64,000 nt of DNA, taken from Myxococcales bacterium (lineage in GTDB: Bacteria; Myxococcota_A; Polyangia; Polyangiales; DASUME01). The stretch covers positions 4,480,001 to 4,544,000 of the forward strand of contig JASGJH010000001.1 of the NCBI GenBank assembly GCA_047601445.1, written 5' to 3'. Each line of letters begins with the position of its first letter. Position 1 is the stretch's first letter. Of this stretch, positions 9,461-17,042 are shown one piece after another. The position numbers and the translations under genes are program-made. The notes below the pieces were generated by a model. The model searched no databases, was not told where the DNA came from, and saw only the letters and a program-made list of their open reading frames with translations.

Positions 9461-12400
9461 ATGAAGAAATCACCTGAGGTGGAGACACCGGAAGCCTGGG
9501 ACCTGAGTCGCGTTCGGCTCACGGTACAGGCCGTATCCGACGGCGCCGACGTTGGCGCGGCAACTCGCCTGTCGTCGAGACACGTTGGCTACCACCTTCA
9601 AGCGGGCAGAATTCTCGGATGGCTAGCTGGCGACAACAAGCACCCGACAGTCACCGATGCGGGACGAGCGCTCCTTGCAGCGCCACGAGACTCCGCTCAG
9701 GAAGCCGAGGCGCTTCGCTCCGCCGTTTCCGAATGCGCTGCCGTCAAGGTCGTCGTGGGGGAGCGCTTCAGTGGGATAACGTTCGAGGAGCTGGTCGCGG
9801 CTCTCGAAAGTAGCCCGCTAACCGGACTTGCGCGATCAACGGCCAAGAAGCGGGCCGCGGCGTTGCTGCGATGGCGTGACCGAACTCAGAGCGCTACGCC
9901 CGAGCTACCGTCCCAGGCAGAGAGCGCGCGGTGTGAACGCATACTTGTTCTTCAGTTCAGCGACATCCACACCAAAGACCACGCCGATCGCCAAAGGCTC
10001 GAGCACCGGCTATCCAGAGCGATATCGGCAGTAGCTGCACGGCCCGAAATCTATGGAATACGAGAATGCCTCGTGATCATATCCGGCGACATCTCGTACT
10101 CGGGGACGACAAGCCAGTTCGAACTCGCAAGCAGCGCACTGGAAAGCGCGCTTGGCAAGCTCAAGAGCCGCCTTTCTCTAAACGATGTCCAGGTCGTAGT
10201 CACCCCAGGCAACCACGACTGCGACTTTACCGTCGAGTCAAAGGCACGCGGAAAGCTGATCTCGTCAGTAGATCCGGCCGATGTAGACGTTTCATACGTT
10301 GAGGCATGCACAAGTACCCAAACAAGTTTCTGGAAGTTCGCATCGTTTTGGCACACCGGGCCGACGAGAAGCGTCGAAAAGAAAGTGGCAATGGAGATCC
10401 ACAGGATCTCCATTGCTGGGCGGACGATTCATGTCAACTCGTTGAACACTGCCTGGATGTCGACCATAGATGAGAAGCAGGGTGCACTCGTCTTTCCGAG
10501 TTCTGGAATCACAGCATTGCGAGCGCCATCGCCTGCTCCTGACGTCGTGATTACGGTTGGCCACCATGGCTACAACTGGTTTGAAGCCAACAACGCACGT
10601 GCCCTACGGACATCTGTCGAGACCTGCTCCGACATCCTCTTCAGTGGGCACGAGCATATGGCAGACAGCACGCTGAAGCTCGGATCCGCCGGCGACACCT
10701 CTTGGCATATCGAAGGCGGAGTCTTGAACGACAGCACCACCGCTGAGAACAGCTCGTTTAATGCGGTGATTCTGGACATAGCGGGAGGAGAACTTCGGGC
10801 TCTGTCGTTCCGGTGGAACGATGCAGACGACATGTATGTCATCGACCGTGAATCGTCACCCGTTGCATTCCAGCGCAACCAGTTGCGAATGAGGAGCGAA
10901 TTCCAGCTCAACCAAGCCTTCCAAGCGGCGTTGAACGACCCCGGAGAATCGTATCAGCATCCGAGAAAGTCTCCGATTCGGCTCCAGGATCTCTTTGTCT
11001 ACCCAAACCTGGAGGAGCGCGTTCACGAGAAGCACGCAGATGTCGCGCGACTAATCAGGACGCCTATCGATTTCATACTGCGAGAGCAATGCGTCCTGGT
11101 TCTTGCGCCTGAACGCGCAGGCAAGACGGCAATGGCACGCATGCTTTTCTCCGATCTATACAGGCTTGGATTCGTGCCGGTACTGATTGACGGGCGCCAA
11201 CTCGACAACCCGGCACCCGAGCGCGTCAACGCCAGAGCCGACGAATCGTTCGTTGAAGGCTACGACAGGGCGCTTCTTGAACGCTTTCGACAGCTCGACC
11301 CTGCCAAGCGGGTCTGCATCGTGGACGATCTTCACCGTTCTCCCCTCAACATCGCGGCCAAGGACAAGGCAATCGGAGTATTGGCAAGTTTTGCGGATAT
11401 GGTCGTAGTGTTCACCGATGAAAACTTCGACGTCGCAGCGGTCAGCGGCCCTACTCAAAGCTCCCATCTCTGGGATTTCTCGCATTGCACGATGCTCCCT
11501 TTGGGACACCGGGTGAGGTACGACTTAGTGTCGCGATGGTGCAATCTCGGGCGGGGCCATGGCGACGACCCCGATGCAGTTTCCCGAGAAACCGAGCGTC
11601 GCGACAGGACCGTAACACGTCTAATTGGCCAGAACTTTTTGCCTGCATATCCAGTCTTTGTCCTGCTCTGTTTACAGCAGCTGGAGATCAAGGCTCCTGA
11701 GAGCAACCTCGGATCATTTGGCCATCTCTACGAGGCGCTACTCACGCGCAACCTGATAAGCGGAGGCTCATCCTCGGGAATGGACCTGGATGCAAAGCAG
11801 CAGTTTCTTTCCCATTTCGCTTTCCACCTATTTGAGAGCGGCTCCGAAAGCACTGACAGGACTGCTTTCAATTCGTGTTACGACGAGTACTGCGAGCGAT
11901 TCCACGTTCGCTTTTCACTCGAACAACTTGAGAAGGAGCTGCTTGCCAGCCTAGTATTCGAGGTAAAATCCGGGCGGTATTGCTTCAAGTATCAGTACGC
12001 ATACCTATTTTTTGTTGCCAGGTATCTGCGAGATCGTTTGGACGAGACGAGGATTCGGGGCATCGTCGTTGAACTTTGCCGCAAGCTTCATCACGAGCAC
12101 TCAGCTAACATCCTCCTCTTCCTCTGTCATCTTTCTAAGCACCCATTCGTGCTGGACACTCTCCTGGAGGCGGCGCGGTCCTTGTTCTCCGACGGCATGC
12201 CCCTGGACATGGAAACGGCTCTTTCTCCGATTCACCAGAGGGCGGAGCCACGCACACTACGCCTGGAAGGCGGCGATCATCGCGAGAATCGACGCGCACT
12301 GCGCGATATCCGAGATCAAGGCGAACGCTCACGCGGCGACCGAATCGATCACGACGGATTGCCACCAGAGGTTATGACGTTCACCGCAGCCTACAAGACT

Positions 12401-12994
12401 GTTCACATTTTGGGCCAAGTACTCCGTGGGTTCCCTGGCTCGATTCCTGGAGACAAGAAGCTGGAGATTGCCTCCGAGTGCTACTCTCTCGGGCTGCGCT
12501 CGACACGCGCGCTGATGGAAATGATCATCGCTTCTCGCGAGGAAATCGAGGCCGGCTTGTGCGAGGTAATCGGGAGTCGACGGCCTGGACTTCGTGACGA
12601 TAGCGACAAGCTGCAAAACGCTGCGCGACGCATGCTTTTTGACCTTTGCGAGTCGATGTGTTTCGGGACCATTCAGCACATTTCAGACGCTGTTGGCCTG
12701 CAGACACTCTCACGGACCTACGACGAGGTCTTAAAGAAGCACAGCCCGATTTCATATCGCATCGTCGACCTATCCGTTCACCTAGACCATTTTGACGAGT
12801 TTCCGCAAACCCAACTTGATGGGCTACTACGTGACGCCAAGGGAAAGGTTCTTCCCATGAACCTGATCGGAAGACTGGTCTGGCGCCACATGTACCTCTT
12901 TCCTGTTAATCCAAGACTGATTCAGTCTCTGTGCAGCAAGCTGAACATTCAGTTCACCCTCGCCCTCAAGTCTTCGGGCAAGGGCCGAAGCTAG
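9461..12994 (+). CDS. Multidomain protein: N-terminal winged-helix-like domain, calcineurin-like metallophosphoesterase, STAND/NACHT-like P-loop NTPase, helical C-terminus (probable defence protein)
   Basis: Phosphoesterase motifs FSDIH, ISGDIS, PGNHD, GHH, SGHEH. Walker A APERAGKT (nt 11105-11128), Walker B CIVDDLH, then P-V-F-V and Y.F.Y STAND-like elements. Confidence 0.85.
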   Translation: MKKSPEVETPEAWDLSRVRLTVQAVSDGADVGAATRLSSRHVGYHLQAGRILGWLAGDNKHPTVTDAGRALLAAPRDSAQEAEALRSAVSECAAVKVVVGERFSGITFEELVAALESSPLTGLARSTAKKRAAALLRWRDRTQSATPELPSQAESARCERILVLQFSDIHTKDHADRQRLEHRLSRAISAVAARPEIYGIRECLVIISGDISYSGTTSQFELASSALESALGKLKSRLSLNDVQVVVTPGNHDCDFTVESKARGKLISSVDPADVDVSYVEACTSTQTSFWKFASFWHTGPTRSVEKKVAMEIHRISIAGRTIHVNSLNTAWMSTIDEKQGALVFPSSGITALRAPSPAPDVVITVGHHGYNWFEANNARALRTSVETCSDILFSGHEHMADSTLKLGSAGDTSWHIEGGVLNDSTTAENSSFNAVILDIAGGELRALSFRWNDADDMYVIDRESSPVAFQRNQLRMRSEFQLNQAFQAALNDPGESYQHPRKSPIRLQDLFVYPNLEERVHEKHADVARLIRTPIDFILREQCVLVLAPERAGKTAMARMLFSDLYRLGFVPVLIDGRQLDNPAPERVNARADESFVEGYDRALLERFRQLDPAKRVCIVDDLHRSPLNIAAKDKAIGVLASFADMVVVFTDENFDVAAVSGPTQSSHLWDFSHCTMLPLGHRVRYDLVSRWCNLGRGHGDDPDAVSRETERRDRTVTRLIGQNFLPAYPVFVLLCLQQLEIKAPESNLGSFGHLYEALLTRNLISGGSSSGMDLDAKQQFLSHFAFHLFESGSESTDRTAFNSCYDEYCERFHVRFSLEQLEKELLASLVFEVKSGRYCFKYQYAYLFFVARYLRDRLDETRIRGIVVELCRKLHHEHSANILLFLCHLSKHPFVLDTLLEAARSLFSDGMPLDMETALSPIHQRAEPRTLRLEGGDHRENRRALRDIRDQGERSRGDRIDHDGLPPEVMTFTAAYKTVHILGQVLRGFPGSIPGDKKLEIASECYSLGLRSTRALMEMIIASREEIEAGLCEVIGSRRPGLRDDSDKLQNAARRMLFDLCESMCFGTIQHISDAVGLQTLSRTYDEVLKKHSPISYRIVDLSVHLDHFDEFPQTQLDGLLRDAKGKVLPMNLIGRLVWRHMYLFPVNPRLIQSLCSKLNIQFTLALKSSGKGRS

Positions 12995-13289
12995 GCGCAC
13001 GGGCCGCTCGTGAGCACTTGCGTCGCTGAAGCCTGTACCTTCCTCTGTATGGAGCCCAGGGGCAAAGCACCAACTTAGAGCCGGCAGAGGGCGCCGAGTC
13101 GCATAGAGGCCGGAGCCTTTGAGTTCGAGCACGTTGGATCCAGCGTCGCAGGCAAGCCTGTTCGGAAGCCCTCCAAGATGCCTAAATCGTCAGTTTGGTT
13201 TTCACCCCTATGGTGCAATGACGGAGTTGGTTGAGGAGTGACTCAAAGTCCTAGGAGGATTGAGTGACCTAGGATAGGGTACGTACAGG

Positions 13290-13465
13290 GGCTCACAGGA
13301 GCTCTACACATCCGGCTACATCCTTTGCGGGCCCAATGCGCATTTGGGGTCGTGAGGGTCGCATCGGCGCGGGTCACCGCTCTGACGCATGAAATATACT
13401 TTTTCGCTCGGATGCGGCTTGGTGCGGGAGCTTGCGAGCAAACGCACCATTTTTAATTTGGTGTT
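13290..13465 (+). ncRNA. Putative DRT9-type RT-associated non-coding RNA (boundaries approximate)
   Basis: ORF-free region abutting the RT start. Stems: CATCCG(13309-14)/CGGATG(13409-14), CCCAA/TTGGG (about 13332-48), extended hairpin 13361-13388 (GCGG-GTCA-CCGC core), TGGTGCG(13420-26)/CGCACCA(13443-49). T5 tracts at 13400-04 and 13450-54. Confidence 0.7.
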
Positions 13466-13471
13466 GTTGCG

Positions 13472-15019
13472 ATGGCATCACGGACTGAGACCCATCTGCT
13501 GAACGCGATCCAGGATGAGGCGCGCAAGCTCATCCTTCGATATCAGCGTTATGCTCACGATCTGCACAACGAGGCCATGAGAATCGGGCGTCGAGCAGGA
13601 AGGGTTCCGCCGAAGGAAGTCAGGCGGCCGGGCTATTGGTCGTTGCCGGCGTTCGATCCATTTCATGTTCGAGCTCAGGCAGGGGGCTACGCGCATGCCC
13701 TCGCCCGTTCCCTTGAGCGAGACACCTACAAGCCGTGGCCCGCCGTTTCGTACGATGTCCCGAAGTCCGATGGCACGATGCGAGAGGTCAACGTGTTCTC
13801 GGTCGCCGACAATGCGTTCTCTCGTCTCGTTTACAAGGGACTGCTCGCAAAGAACTGCACGCGTTTCAGCGCTCGCTGCTATGCCTATAGGACCGACTTG
13901 ACCGTCCATGATGCGATTACACACATCGCGTCAGAGTTTCGTTCAACGCAGCGCCTCTTCATTGCGGAGTTCGATTTCAGCAAGTTTTTCGACTCGATTT
14001 CGCATGACCACATTCTTCGGGTACTAGACAGCGGTCAGTTCCTTCTGACGAATCGAGAGAGACGAATCATTGAGTCGTTTCTACGCACCCCGACTCTAGG
14101 AGTTGCCAGCTGGACGAACCGCTCGGTCCTAGTGCGCGAGCGTGGAATTCCCCAGGGAACTTCCCTCTCTCTGTTCTTGGCCAACGCAGCAGCAAGCCCC
14201 CTCGACAGGACGCTCGAACGCATGAGCGTGGGTTTCGCACGCTATGCCGACGACACAATTATTTGGTCCACCGACTACAGCGCAGTCCTGGGTGCCGTCG
14301 ACGCTTTGTCTGAGGCTGCTCGTCTGATGGGAGTTCAGATAAACCTGAAAAAGTCCGGCGGAATTAGCCTAGTTTGCCCACCAACCTACCGAAGCCCTGA
14401 GCTTGCTTCAAGCAAGGCGTCGGCTGTCTATCTCGGCTACGGGATCTCGCAATCATTCGTTTCGATTAGCCCGAACAATGTAGAGGGCATCAAGAAGCGG
14501 ATAGCCGAGATCGTGTTTCGCAACCTACTCGAGTTTCCATCGAATGGCATACTGAACGCCGCTCGCGTAGACCCTCCTATTGACCGGGACTACTACGTCA
14601 TGATTCTTCAGATCAGACGCTACCTATACGGTGACGTGAGTGAGCTTCAACTTCGTAGATTCTTCAATCGCACAAGCGCAAGGATTCGCTTTAGAGGGCT
14701 CATGTCTTTCTACCCGTTGGTCGACCACTTCGACCAGCTGAAGGCGCTTGATGGCTGGATGGTTCATACGATCGCGACGACGCTCAAACTGCGTGGCGAC
14801 TACTTTGTCAAAGCCGGAGTCCAACTGCCTCGTCCGCACGGCCTGAGTCGTGGTGAACTCCTTACCTTTCAGGGGCGAAGCACAAAGGACACCCCACTTG
14901 ACTTGCGCATTCCGAGCTTCGTACGGATGGCTCGCCTAATGCAGCGGGTTACGAAGTTGCGTGGAGCCAATGCAATCGCGAATCCCAAGTCATTTGAGTA
15001 CTACTGGGGCCTGACGTGA
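13472..15019 (+). CDS. Defence-associated reverse transcriptase, DRT9/UG28-like
   Basis: VPKSDG..R, YAYR, EFDFSKFFDSISH, GIPQGTSLSLFLAN, RYADD (YADD at 14243-54), KKS, LGY. The flanking motifs RPGYW..FDPF.V, IRRYLYG, GLMSFYPLV, LDGW, IPSF and NPKSFEYY match my recollection of DRT9 RTs. No maturase or endonuclease domain. Confidence 0.88.
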   Translation: MASRTETHLLNAIQDEARKLILRYQRYAHDLHNEAMRIGRRAGRVPPKEVRRPGYWSLPAFDPFHVRAQAGGYAHALARSLERDTYKPWPAVSYDVPKSDGTMREVNVFSVADNAFSRLVYKGLLAKNCTRFSARCYAYRTDLTVHDAITHIASEFRSTQRLFIAEFDFSKFFDSISHDHILRVLDSGQFLLTNRERRIIESFLRTPTLGVASWTNRSVLVRERGIPQGTSLSLFLANAAASPLDRTLERMSVGFARYADDTIIWSTDYSAVLGAVDALSEAARLMGVQINLKKSGGISLVCPPTYRSPELASSKASAVYLGYGISQSFVSISPNNVEGIKKRIAEIVFRNLLEFPSNGILNAARVDPPIDRDYYVMILQIRRYLYGDVSELQLRRFFNRTSARIRFRGLMSFYPLVDHFDQLKALDGWMVHTIATTLKLRGDYFVKAGVQLPRPHGLSRGELLTFQGRSTKDTPLDLRIPSFVRMARLMQRVTKLRGANAIANPKSFEYYWGLT

Positions 15020-15495
15020 TGGTAGCGCTGATTGAACCTTCGTAAGATGGGTTGGGTTTGAACTCGAGCGCGGGTTGTCACCGGCATTGGCCCAAAGGCC
15101 TCGCGCGGCGCACTAGGCGTCGAAGCTCTGCAGTTTTGCGCGTGGGCCTCTCGGGTCCGTGGGGCATGCGCCGTTGAACGTTGCGTCGGGGGCGAGGCTC
15201 AAGTCGCTCACGGTCGAGACGGCCCTGTGGCCATCTTGCCGTTTGCGGGCGGTCTCTAGGGTTGGATCGAGGACAGCCTTCTGTCTGAGCTGGCGGGCTC
15301 GGCGGTGCCGAACCGCATTCGCGGAGTCGGTATGGAGAGAAGCCGGTCACTGGGCACTAGCACATTGCGAGATGCTGCGAGGGCAAGCAGAGACGAGTGC
15401 CGAGATCGGGCGGGACTGGATTCAAAGTTGGAAGCAACGGTTTGACCGACATTGGCGTAGACATCGAGGTTTCTCGGCGAGATACACTCAGCTCC

Positions 15496-16248
15496 ATGCA
15501 TGAGTCAGATGCCGCAGACATCGAGTCCCAAGCCACTCAAGACATGCTAATGCGCCACTCGGTTCTGATGCTGTTCGCCAGCCGAACTACTGGAGAGTGG
15601 TCTCAGGGAACTGGCACGTTCTTCGAGACTGATCGGCATCACTATCTCGTCACCGCAGCTCACGTTGCCGAGGACTTAGGGGCAGATGATCTTCGGTTCG
15701 GGCTGATTCTGCAGCCCGGGGGGAGCAAGGCAATCTTCGAGCCGGAGAGGCCGGACCACTGGATTTTAGGGAATCAGGCGACGCGCGATGTTGCGGCGTT
15801 CCGACTTGCGCGTGGGGACGTGCAGGAGATCAAACGTGCCGGATTTCGATTCCTCAGGGTCTCCGACTTCGCCGACGGCGAGTTCGGGCGATTTGCGATC
15901 TACGGCTACCCAAAGGCCATGACAACAATTGACCATCATGGCCTGCACAAGGATTCGGTGTGGCTCGAAGTACCTGCGTATGAGGGCTCCGAACGGTGCG
16001 GGAAGAATGAGTTCCTACTGAAGTGGCACGACGGCATTGATTTTCATCTGGGCGGCGTAAGTGGTTCGCCGGTGTGGGCCGTCCTCGAACAGAGACCAGG
16101 CTCCATTTGGGGCGGACCAACGGCTCACTACAAATTCTGCGGTATCCAGATCAGCATAAAGAAGGGCGAATGGATCAAATTCGTGCAGGCGTTTGTGGTG
16201 GGAGAAATGCTCGATCTTGCAGATCGCATCCAGATCATTCGGAAGTAG
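15496..16248 (+). CDS. Trypsin-like (PA clan) serine protease, no signal peptide
   Basis: GTGTFF, YLVTAAHV (His), DVAAF (Asp), GYP, GGVSGSPV (Ser). Start uncertain (ORF open from 15397). Confidence 0.8.
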   Translation: MHESDAADIESQATQDMLMRHSVLMLFASRTTGEWSQGTGTFFETDRHHYLVTAAHVAEDLGADDLRFGLILQPGGSKAIFEPERPDHWILGNQATRDVAAFRLARGDVQEIKRAGFRFLRVSDFADGEFGRFAIYGYPKAMTTIDHHGLHKDSVWLEVPAYEGSERCGKNEFLLKWHDGIDFHLGGVSGSPVWAVLEQRPGSIWGGPTAHYKFCGIQISIKKGEWIKFVQAFVVGEMLDLADRIQIIRK

Positions 16249-16515: not shown

Positions 16516-16818
16516 CTACCTGCCCACCCAATACCCCGGCTTCCTCCGCTGATGCGCCACTGCCAGCACCTGCAACTCGTCGCCGACCACCCGCACGATC
16601 ACAAGATACGGGAACCGTCTCAATAGGTGCACGCGACGGGTCGGACTTCCCTTCCGCCATGCTCGTCCGCTGCGCGGAAACTGCCGCGCGCGCGCAAGCA
16701 CCACGCCTAGCTCGTCTACAAACGCGTCGCCGAGCTCGGCGCTCATCTCAGCGAAGTAGCGCTGAGCTTCCTGCACCTCGCGGGCGGCCGCAGGGTGGAA
16801 GAGAACCCTACGCGTCAC
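16516..16818 (-). CDS. Type II toxin, ParE/RelE family
   Basis: FHPAA..E...A..YF, RRFPY, VLAVAHQRRKPGYW; overlaps the antitoxin stop by 4 nt. Confidence 0.9.
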   Translation of the reverse strand: MTRRVLFHPAAAREVQEAQRYFAEMSAELGDAFVDELGVVLARARQFPRSGRAWRKGSPTRRVHLLRRFPYLVIVRVVGDELQVLAVAHQRRKPGYWVGR

Positions 16819-17042
16819 CGCCGTAGACTCTCGCGCAACCCATCCCAGTCGATTAGCTCGACTTCGCCCTTCTCAATCTCTTCCTCACGCCGATCGAGCT
16901 CCGCGCTCCAGGCGGCCTCAAAGTCCGCCACGTCTTCGCCGGGAGGGTCGAGTGTCTTGAGCAGCTGGGTGATGACCTTGGCGCGCTCGGAGCTGTCGAG
17001 CGCACTCGCTTGCTTCACGATGTCGGCAACCTTGGAGGCCAT
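16815..17042 (-). CDS. Putative addiction-module antitoxin
   Basis: 75 aa, acidic: ERAK...LL.TLD...AAWSAELDRR...I..G.V.LIDW; directly upstream of the toxin. Confidence 0.85.
   Translation of the reverse strand: MASKVADIVKQASALDSSERAKVITQLLKTLDPPGEDVADFEAAWSAELDRREEEIEKGEVELIDWDGLRESLRR

Follow-up and report, generated by a model that had tools for sequence, protein, structure and literature searches.

A putative template RNA with a U5 tract upstream of a divergent DRT9 reverse transcriptase gene in a Myxococcales bacterium

The locus described here raises the question of what role is played by a strongly structured segment with an AT-rich tract that directly precedes a reverse transcriptase (RT) gene in otherwise GC-rich DNA; the 64,000-nucleotide stretch of a Myxococcales genome in which it lies is referred to below as the window. 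An earlier note had read this segment as a non-coding RNA (ncRNA) whose first U-tract templates reiterative poly-dA synthesis, with a second U-tract that could serve as an alternative template, the RNA 3' end or an attenuator. The structured element is placed here at 13288-13457, directly 5' of an intact DRT9 RT gene, and is likely the partner ncRNA of that enzyme, working as in DRT9, a reading to which we assign a probability of about 0.86. What is established directly for this locus is its sequence, the predicted fold, the family and residues of the RT, and conservation and covariation among homologues.

The gene downstream of the element is assigned to the DRT9 (UG28) family:

13472-15019, + strand: DRT9 (UG28) reverse transcriptase, 515 aa, intact, with YADD at residues 258-261 and C-terminal tyrosines Y510-Y511

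Its product aligns with positions 2-487 of 488 of the PADLOC Drt9 profile (558.7 bits, E 2.8e-168), the next family scoring 104 bits, and residues 6-511 align with the solved DRT9 structures (PDB 9ioa, 9iob, 9nlv, 9nlx, 9vku and 9vma; E 2.3e-102). For group II maturase, Drt3a, Drt2 and retron RTs, its scores stay under the cut-offs set by NCBIfam. A DRT2 identity was rejected at 36.1 bits against the NCBIfam Drt2 cut-off of 390, as were retron and group II intron identities, at 53.4 vs 235 and 117.1 vs 300 bits, respectively, and with no Rfam match. An alignment of 102 full-length RT proteins shows that residues Y25, K98, R104, R140, D168, YADD and Y496 of the Salmonella system (SenDRT9) are all kept in the window RT, where the active site is Y258-A-D-D261, K98, R104 and R140 are present and the N-terminal tyrosine is Y27; K208 of SenDRT9 is not kept, at a position that is variable across the family. 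At the C-terminus, Y510 aligns to Y496 and W512 to Y498, the second tyrosine (Y511) being adjacent rather than at +2, and this YY arrangement is the commonest form (60/102 RTs, with YxY in 33/102). The window RT shares 40% identity with SenDRT9 and 50-51% with its best match, its closest relatives being a Plesiocystis/Acidobacteriota group at 46-51%. In a quick tree (SH-aLRT only, midpoint root) it falls with Plesiocystis and Acidobacteriota homologues, its own branch being long (0.78), although its exact placement is unsure.

DRT9 is already characterized genetically, biochemically and by cryo-EM, and a commentary counts it as well established (PMC13213688). The published system consists of an RT with an upstream ncRNA (Tang et al. 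2025, PMC12483538). In SenDRT9, U123-126 template poly-dA, deletion of U124 abolishes defence, replacement of U4 by A4 leads to a poly-dT product, and the C-terminal tyrosines probably prime synthesis; C93-G113 kissing pairs build the oligomer, and SL3 is nearly dispensable (PMC12483538). Han et al. 2025 agree, with a 188-nt RNA of six stem-loops, U124-127 and Y496/Y498 (PMC12489045). In E. coli, ExoI silences DRT9, and gp58 of phage T5 is the trigger (PMC12483538).

Folding of 13290-13465 gives -71.4 kcal/mol (z -3.35), and 0/200 shuffles are as stable. The elements of the RNA, some of them bounded from the alignment of a covariance model (R1, below), are as follows:

13275-13280, + strand: candidate -10-like hexamer (TAnnnT), 6 nt before the AG preceding SL1, from a by-eye comparison of 20 near-clade loci
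13288-13305, + strand: SL1, 5' hairpin of 7 bp with a 4-nt loop, pair probabilities 0.78-0.85, R1 alignment
13307-13316, + strand: 5' arm of the long-range stem SL2 in register 1, one A between SL1 and the arm
13322-13358, + strand: inner hairpin, a single SL3/SL4-type stem, pair probabilities 0.78-1.0
13361-13388, + strand: SL5 with a GUCA tetraloop, pair probabilities at least 0.93
13389-13405, + strand: template loop, with U5 at 13400-13404
13406-13416, + strand: 3' arm of SL2, R1 alignment, with SL2 covariation in homologues
13420-13457, + strand: SL6-like compound hairpin (13420-49) with a U-rich tail (13450-57), -14.7 kcal/mol, a predicted intrinsic terminator or RNA 3' end

The long-range stem drawn by the earlier note holds, 13309-14 (CATCCG) being the exact reverse complement of 13409-14, with pair probabilities of 0.79-0.84. 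Of the two hairpins that it had placed inside this stem, 13361-88 is as drawn, whereas 13332-48 is present but only as the tip of 13322-13358; SL1, with double changes in 5/5 pairs among homologues, was missing from its list. The single inner hairpin of SL3/SL4 type is a layout common to Plesiocystis pacifica (L001) and most homologues. A short near-duplication supplies a second possible 5' arm for SL2 at 13314-13323, which is closer in likeness to the conserved arm of the clade yet lies far from SL1, and register 1 is more stable by 6.7 kcal/mol. Outer SL2 is weak in register 1, pairs that are near-invariant in the near clade being mismatched there.

Motif context suggests that C13375 in the SL5 loop is likely the counterpart of SenDRT9 C93, the inter-subunit kissing base, and that G13391 is likely that of G113. 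The reference for this comparison is L079, an E. coli locus that shares its protein accession with SenDRT9, in which numbering from L079:1014 puts C93, G113 and U123-126 as published, at motifs common to the window, with C93 in a GUCA context. The loop C of a GUCA, GACA or GUCG motif lies 26-28 nt before the U-tract in 19/20 near relatives, and 25 nt before it in the window. At the 5' end, the candidate -10 hexamer would put the transcription start near 13283-13287, with an alternative hexamer at 13270-75; a consensus promoter scan and a simple terminator scan of 12900-13600 each returned 0 sites. Upstream of the ncRNA, nested repeats occupy 13236-13283: an inverted repeat with arms of 9 bp (13238-46/13260-68), two direct repeats of 7 nt, and a hairpin resembling SL1 that R1 matches weakly (E 0.71). 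They may represent an operator or what is left of a duplicated 5' end. As a candidate for SL1 itself, the hairpin at 13248-62 was rejected, since it lies about 45 nt from SL2, whereas SL1 adjoins SL2 in homologues.

Loci recovered in scans for DRT9 RT homologues number 78 in genomes, 80 in metagenomes and 14 on viral contigs, the last being only partial and distant matches, and the 123 loci that match the RT from near its N-terminus, L079 included, form the set used here. A script bounded the SL1-SL2 core in 97/123 loci, two of which were mis-bounded and dropped; in the 26 unbounded loci, R2 (a second covariance model) finds the RNA in 15, and R1 in two more of those given to it. At three loci with DRT9-like RTs (L053, on a very long branch, L055 and L109), neither the script nor R2 detected the ncRNA, and visual inspection gave no clear layout. 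Cores mostly measure about 120-130 nt and contain two inner hairpins, as in the window; SenDRT9 has three in 147 nt.

The two clades were modelled separately, since a mixed MAFFT alignment of 64 sequences misaligned them at SL2, and SL1 was all that RNAalifold recovered from it. R1 was built from 20 near-clade RNAs with the window left out, and R2 from 43 Salmonella-like (distant-clade) RNAs of 88 distinct, with SL1 and SL2 pairs only. The best R1 match in the window is 13287-13417 (29.1 bits, a rough E-value of 8.9e-5; next 12.5 bits), which is also the best in the 9.5-Mb genome (rough E-value 0.013; next E 8.4). This score is far below those of the training members (63-137 bits) and one held-out relative (87), and near that of another held-out relative (34). 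R2 does not find the window element, and also misses the near-clade loci L001, L002, L004 and L082, while R1 does not find L079. The covariance model from regions upstream of homologous RTs that the earlier note had called for thus gives a divided answer, weakly positive with R1 (29 bits) and negative with R2, and it is RT orthology and motif correspondence that connect the element with the experimentally tested RNA, because no single model spans the window and the SenDRT9-like RNAs. The whole window has 0 Rfam matches at gathering score.

Within each clade, covariation is consistent with the proposed pairs, the window being included in neither alignment. Double changes occur in 12/15 SL1/SL2 pairs of the 43 distant-clade RNAs, where pairing holds in 90.5% of cells, compared with 36-50% when the partners are slid, and in 18/30 pairs of the 20 near-clade RNAs (96% against 30-48%), although these counts lean favourable because the alignments were bounded by a script seeking SL2 pairing and the sequences are related. 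The covariation score was reached by 0/500 shuffles in each clade, and the structures beat all slid controls.

The low R1 score bears on whether the RNA still works. A DRT9 ncRNA that has decayed or misfolded, in a system no longer working, would have lost its outer SL2 pairs and left the 3' arm with competing partners; in register 1 only 2/5 outer SL2 pairs form, the 3' arm can pair also with 13314-23 or 13360-71, and a non-canonical fold is favoured by 1.1 kcal/mol when the transcript reads through to 13474, to which may be added the 29 bits, the long branch of the RT (0.78) and the finding of no other DRT9 in 400 sampled genomes of the phylum (E<=1e-60). We nevertheless consider decay quite improbable, given an intact RT ORF in which all catalytic and regulatory residues checked are kept except K208, variable in the family, an RNA that has all its elements and for which the canonical fold is lowest in energy in transcripts ending at 13419 or 13458, and the same layout in Plesiocystis L001, with a 19/20-identical template loop.

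The AT-rich segment starting at 13391, with T5 at 13400-04, is present as previously described, and 13392-13404 is one of only two stretches in the window with at least 12 A/T in 13 nt. As to rarity, T5 is not very rare in itself (11 runs of at least five T and 15 of at least five A on the + strand of the 64 kb), 6/11 of the T runs sitting in a 6.9-kb low-GC island (57% GC vs 66% elsewhere). By L079 reference numbering, the T5 at 13400-04 occupies the position of SenDRT9 U123-U126, just 5' of the SL2 3' arm; 13384-13403 is identical at 19/20 positions to Plesiocystis L001, and a DRT9-like motif, AA-N(1-2)-YAYTTTT, occurs once in the window when both strands are scanned. The only invariant columns among 64 aligned homologue RNAs are three T of the U-tract. 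Among the 95 bounded loci, duplicates included, the T-run at the template position measures 4 nt in 55 cases and 5 nt in 28, is longer (6-8 nt) in 11 and shorter (3 nt) in one, so that a U5 is ordinary. The fifth U is a substitution and not an insertion, because the first U lies 6 nt from the SL2 arm, the same as in L004. In the minimum-energy fold, some of the U-tract is paired with the preceding GAAA, at an opening cost of only 1.8 kcal/mol. With a DRT9 RT, a tract at the homologous position and the published mechanism (PMC12483538, PMC12489045), the proposal that the first U-tract is the poly-dA template is supported by analogy.

A DRT9-type RNA of a divergent lineage could instead yield a different product, for example an A-rich mixed or short-repeat cDNA read beyond the U-tract. 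The deep-branching position of the lineage, its 40% identity to SenDRT9, the different SL2 core, the shorter linker from the U-tract to SL2, the lack of cross-detection between R1 and R2 and the U3 of the near-clade locus L093 lean this way, but the U-run is the only invariant feature across the 64 aligned RNAs and the active-site and N-terminal residues that contact it are kept, making this alternative very improbable.

The compound hairpin at 13420-49 (7-bp perfect arms, 13420-26/13443-49), the T5 at 13450-54 and the ATG at 13472 are likewise as first reported, and the hairpin and T5 are best read as a predicted SL6 terminator. Among the roles offered for the second tract, that of RNA 3' end is favoured, as the tract corresponds to the terminator-like SL6 of SenDRT9; the legend to Extended Data Fig. 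4c of the published account suggests SL6 to be a terminator, and the RT-bound RNA is without it (PMC12483538). A hairpin with a U-tail after SL2 was found by a local test in 71/73 distant-clade vs 2/20 near-clade loci; this test replaced a global-folding terminator count (52/73 distant, 3/22 near) that missed the reference hairpin itself. The simple terminator scan did not detect SL6 because its interior is 16 nt and the scan's loop rule is 3-8 nt. The role of alternative template is not supported, as SL6 and U-tail in only 2/20 of the nearest relatives cannot be a conserved template, and perturbation of the equivalent 3' U-rich tract had no effect in SenDRT9 (PMC12483538).

Read-through transcripts allow a further pairing, as 13445-49 may pair with 13459-63, just 5' of the start codon, instead of with 13420-24 in the terminator, the two being within 2 kcal/mol. 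On these modelled energies an attenuator is possible, and a regulatory role for the pairing is speculation. This choice of partners could be cited for a view in which the whole element does no more than regulate the RT mRNA in cis, as an attenuator-type leader, or in which the second T5 is the template. Such an account is scarcely probable beside the first U-tract in 20/20 near relatives and SL6 with U-tail in 2/20, an in-frame start 7-16 nt after SL2 in 15/20, and, in SenDRT9, a 3' U-rich tract that tolerates perturbation and an RT-bound RNA that lacks SL6 (PMC12483538). A group of acidobacterial-type DRT9 RNAs without SL6 (L002, L028, L082, L084-L086, L089, L091-L093, L124, L128, L143 and L150) ends 7-16 nt before the RT start codon; with SL6 absent and the start so near, such an ncRNA would need to be cut from the mRNA or to act within it. 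These RNAs contrast with SenDRT9, where scrambling SL6 did impair defence (PMC12483538).

The window DRT9 sits in a 57%-GC island within 66%-GC DNA, and has the following genes as neighbours:

9461-12994, + strand: DS-8-type anti-phage protein, 1177 aa, metallophosphoesterase and NTPase (NF053861, 847.6 bits vs cut-off 790)
15397-16248, + strand: stand-alone trypsin-like ORF (Pfam Trypsin_2 below cut-off; no PADLOC or NCBIfam match)
16516-16818, - strand: ParE-family toxin, at the island edge
16815-17042, - strand: 75-aa ORF upstream of the ParE-family toxin, antitoxin-like in appearance

Beside the ParE pair at the island edge lies a 1105-aa ORF, presumably a class II ribonucleotide reductase. 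The DS-8-type protein, with an extra N-terminal segment of about 160 aa outside the NF053861 profile, belongs with DS-8, a metallophosphatase-NACHT defence protein (PMC13092281), and the trypsin-like ORF, in the low-GC defence island, is a candidate defence gene. These neighbours are not part of the system, since none recurs beside the homologous RTs: tblastn of the DS-8, trypsin-like, M48 and ParE proteins gave no match at E<=1e-3 in the 123 DRT9 loci, of which 92 have more than 1.5 kb upstream and 84 more than 1.5 kb downstream. No direct repeat of at least 10 nt is found between the two island edges examined. The window DRT9 is the only one in the genome which, with none in the 400 sampled genomes of the phylum, is consistent with a recent acquisition.

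The ExoI C-terminal domain (PF08411) was not detected in the 98.7%-complete, single-contig host genome, the E. coli control being detected, so that the silencer must differ if the system is active. Two short DEDDh-domain frames in the host (C1:8854392-8854877 and C1:6539976-6540458) are candidate poly-dA silencers. Many other DRT9 hosts likewise lack sbcB, so the lack of an ExoI match is not peculiar to this locus; it prompts one to ask how poly-dA is kept in check outside enterobacteria. One answer, which we hold to be unlikely, is that a deep-branching, GC-rich DRT9 lineage is gated at the RNA level instead of by ExoI, through two switchable pairings, namely the choice between two 5' arms for SL2 and that between the terminator and a start-occluding hairpin; it also appeals to the escape of the RNA from the Salmonella-like models and to a host without ExoI to destroy poly-dA.

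In the preferred reading, that of a DRT9 partner ncRNA, transcription, templating, priming, oligomer formation and defence are carried over from SenDRT9 and EcoDRT9. The U5 loop at 13400-04 would be held at the YADD site of the RT, where it would template reiterative, likely tyrosine-primed, poly-dA synthesis, and poly-dA build-up during phage infection would likely lead to abortive infection. The scaffold for the RT would be formed by SL1, SL2 and SL5, which would also drive oligomer assembly via a C13375-G13391 inter-subunit kissing pair. Most transcripts would terminate at the hairpin and U-run (13420-57), and those that read through would supply the RT mRNA.

The locus belongs to a bacterial defence system that is well studied, and within it is ordinary, if somewhat divergent. 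It shows each feature of DRT9 membership that can be tested by sequence, with one mixed covariance-model comparison (an R1 match and none with R2), and it adds no new kind of system, as the mechanism proposed in the earlier note is already established for DRT9. Its value is modest and comparative, as a natural variant with a U5, a single inner hairpin and a YY tail that bears on points left by Tang et al., such as the number of uridines needed. Among near-clade ncRNAs, L093 has only three uridines in its template tract (L093:830-832) and several others have four U shifted by one base, and these constitute natural tests of that number. A limited literature search for DRT9/UG28 with Acidobacteri* or Myxococc* gave no DRT9 study of this lineage among the matches listed.

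Compared with the DRT9 systems of Salmonella enterica and E. coli, the window has in common an ncRNA directly upstream of a stand-alone RT. Its RNA shares with that of SenDRT9 SL1, the long-range SL2, SL5 with a GUCA loop, a template loop of G followed by TAC-UUUU, and a 3' hairpin with a U-tail, and its RT shares the N-terminal extension, YADD and C-terminal tyrosines. The two differ in that the window has one inner hairpin, as do most homologues, and a core of 130 nt, where SenDRT9 has SL3 and SL4 and a core of 147 nt; in U5 against U4; in an SL2 core of CAUCCG/CGGAUG with a shorter linker against ACGG/CCGU; in a C-terminal YY against YxY; and in a loop near residue 207 of the RT that is longer by 15 aa. 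The host also has no ExoI match, unlike the E. coli host. Closer to the window is a GC-rich DRT9 sub-lineage made up of Plesiocystis pacifica L001, the Acidobacteriota MAG loci L002-L004 and L028, and metagenome loci, with the closest RTs and a common GUCA-loop SL5. Plesiocystis L001 shares the layout, template loop and SL6 terminator of the window, whereas in acidobacterial members the outer SL2 is near-invariant (GCCGC/GCGGC) and SL6 is mostly missing, the window having a weaker outer SL2 and keeping SL6. The ncRNAs of DRT2 (UG2) and DRT10 (UG17) are likewise upstream scaffold-plus-template RNAs that give repetitive cDNA (PMC12483538 for DRT2), DRT2 copying a template of about 120 nt into a gene and DRT10 producing tandem repeats and having a SLATT effector; compared with its 558.7 bits for Drt9, the window RT reaches only 48.8 for Drt2 and 82.8 for UG17.
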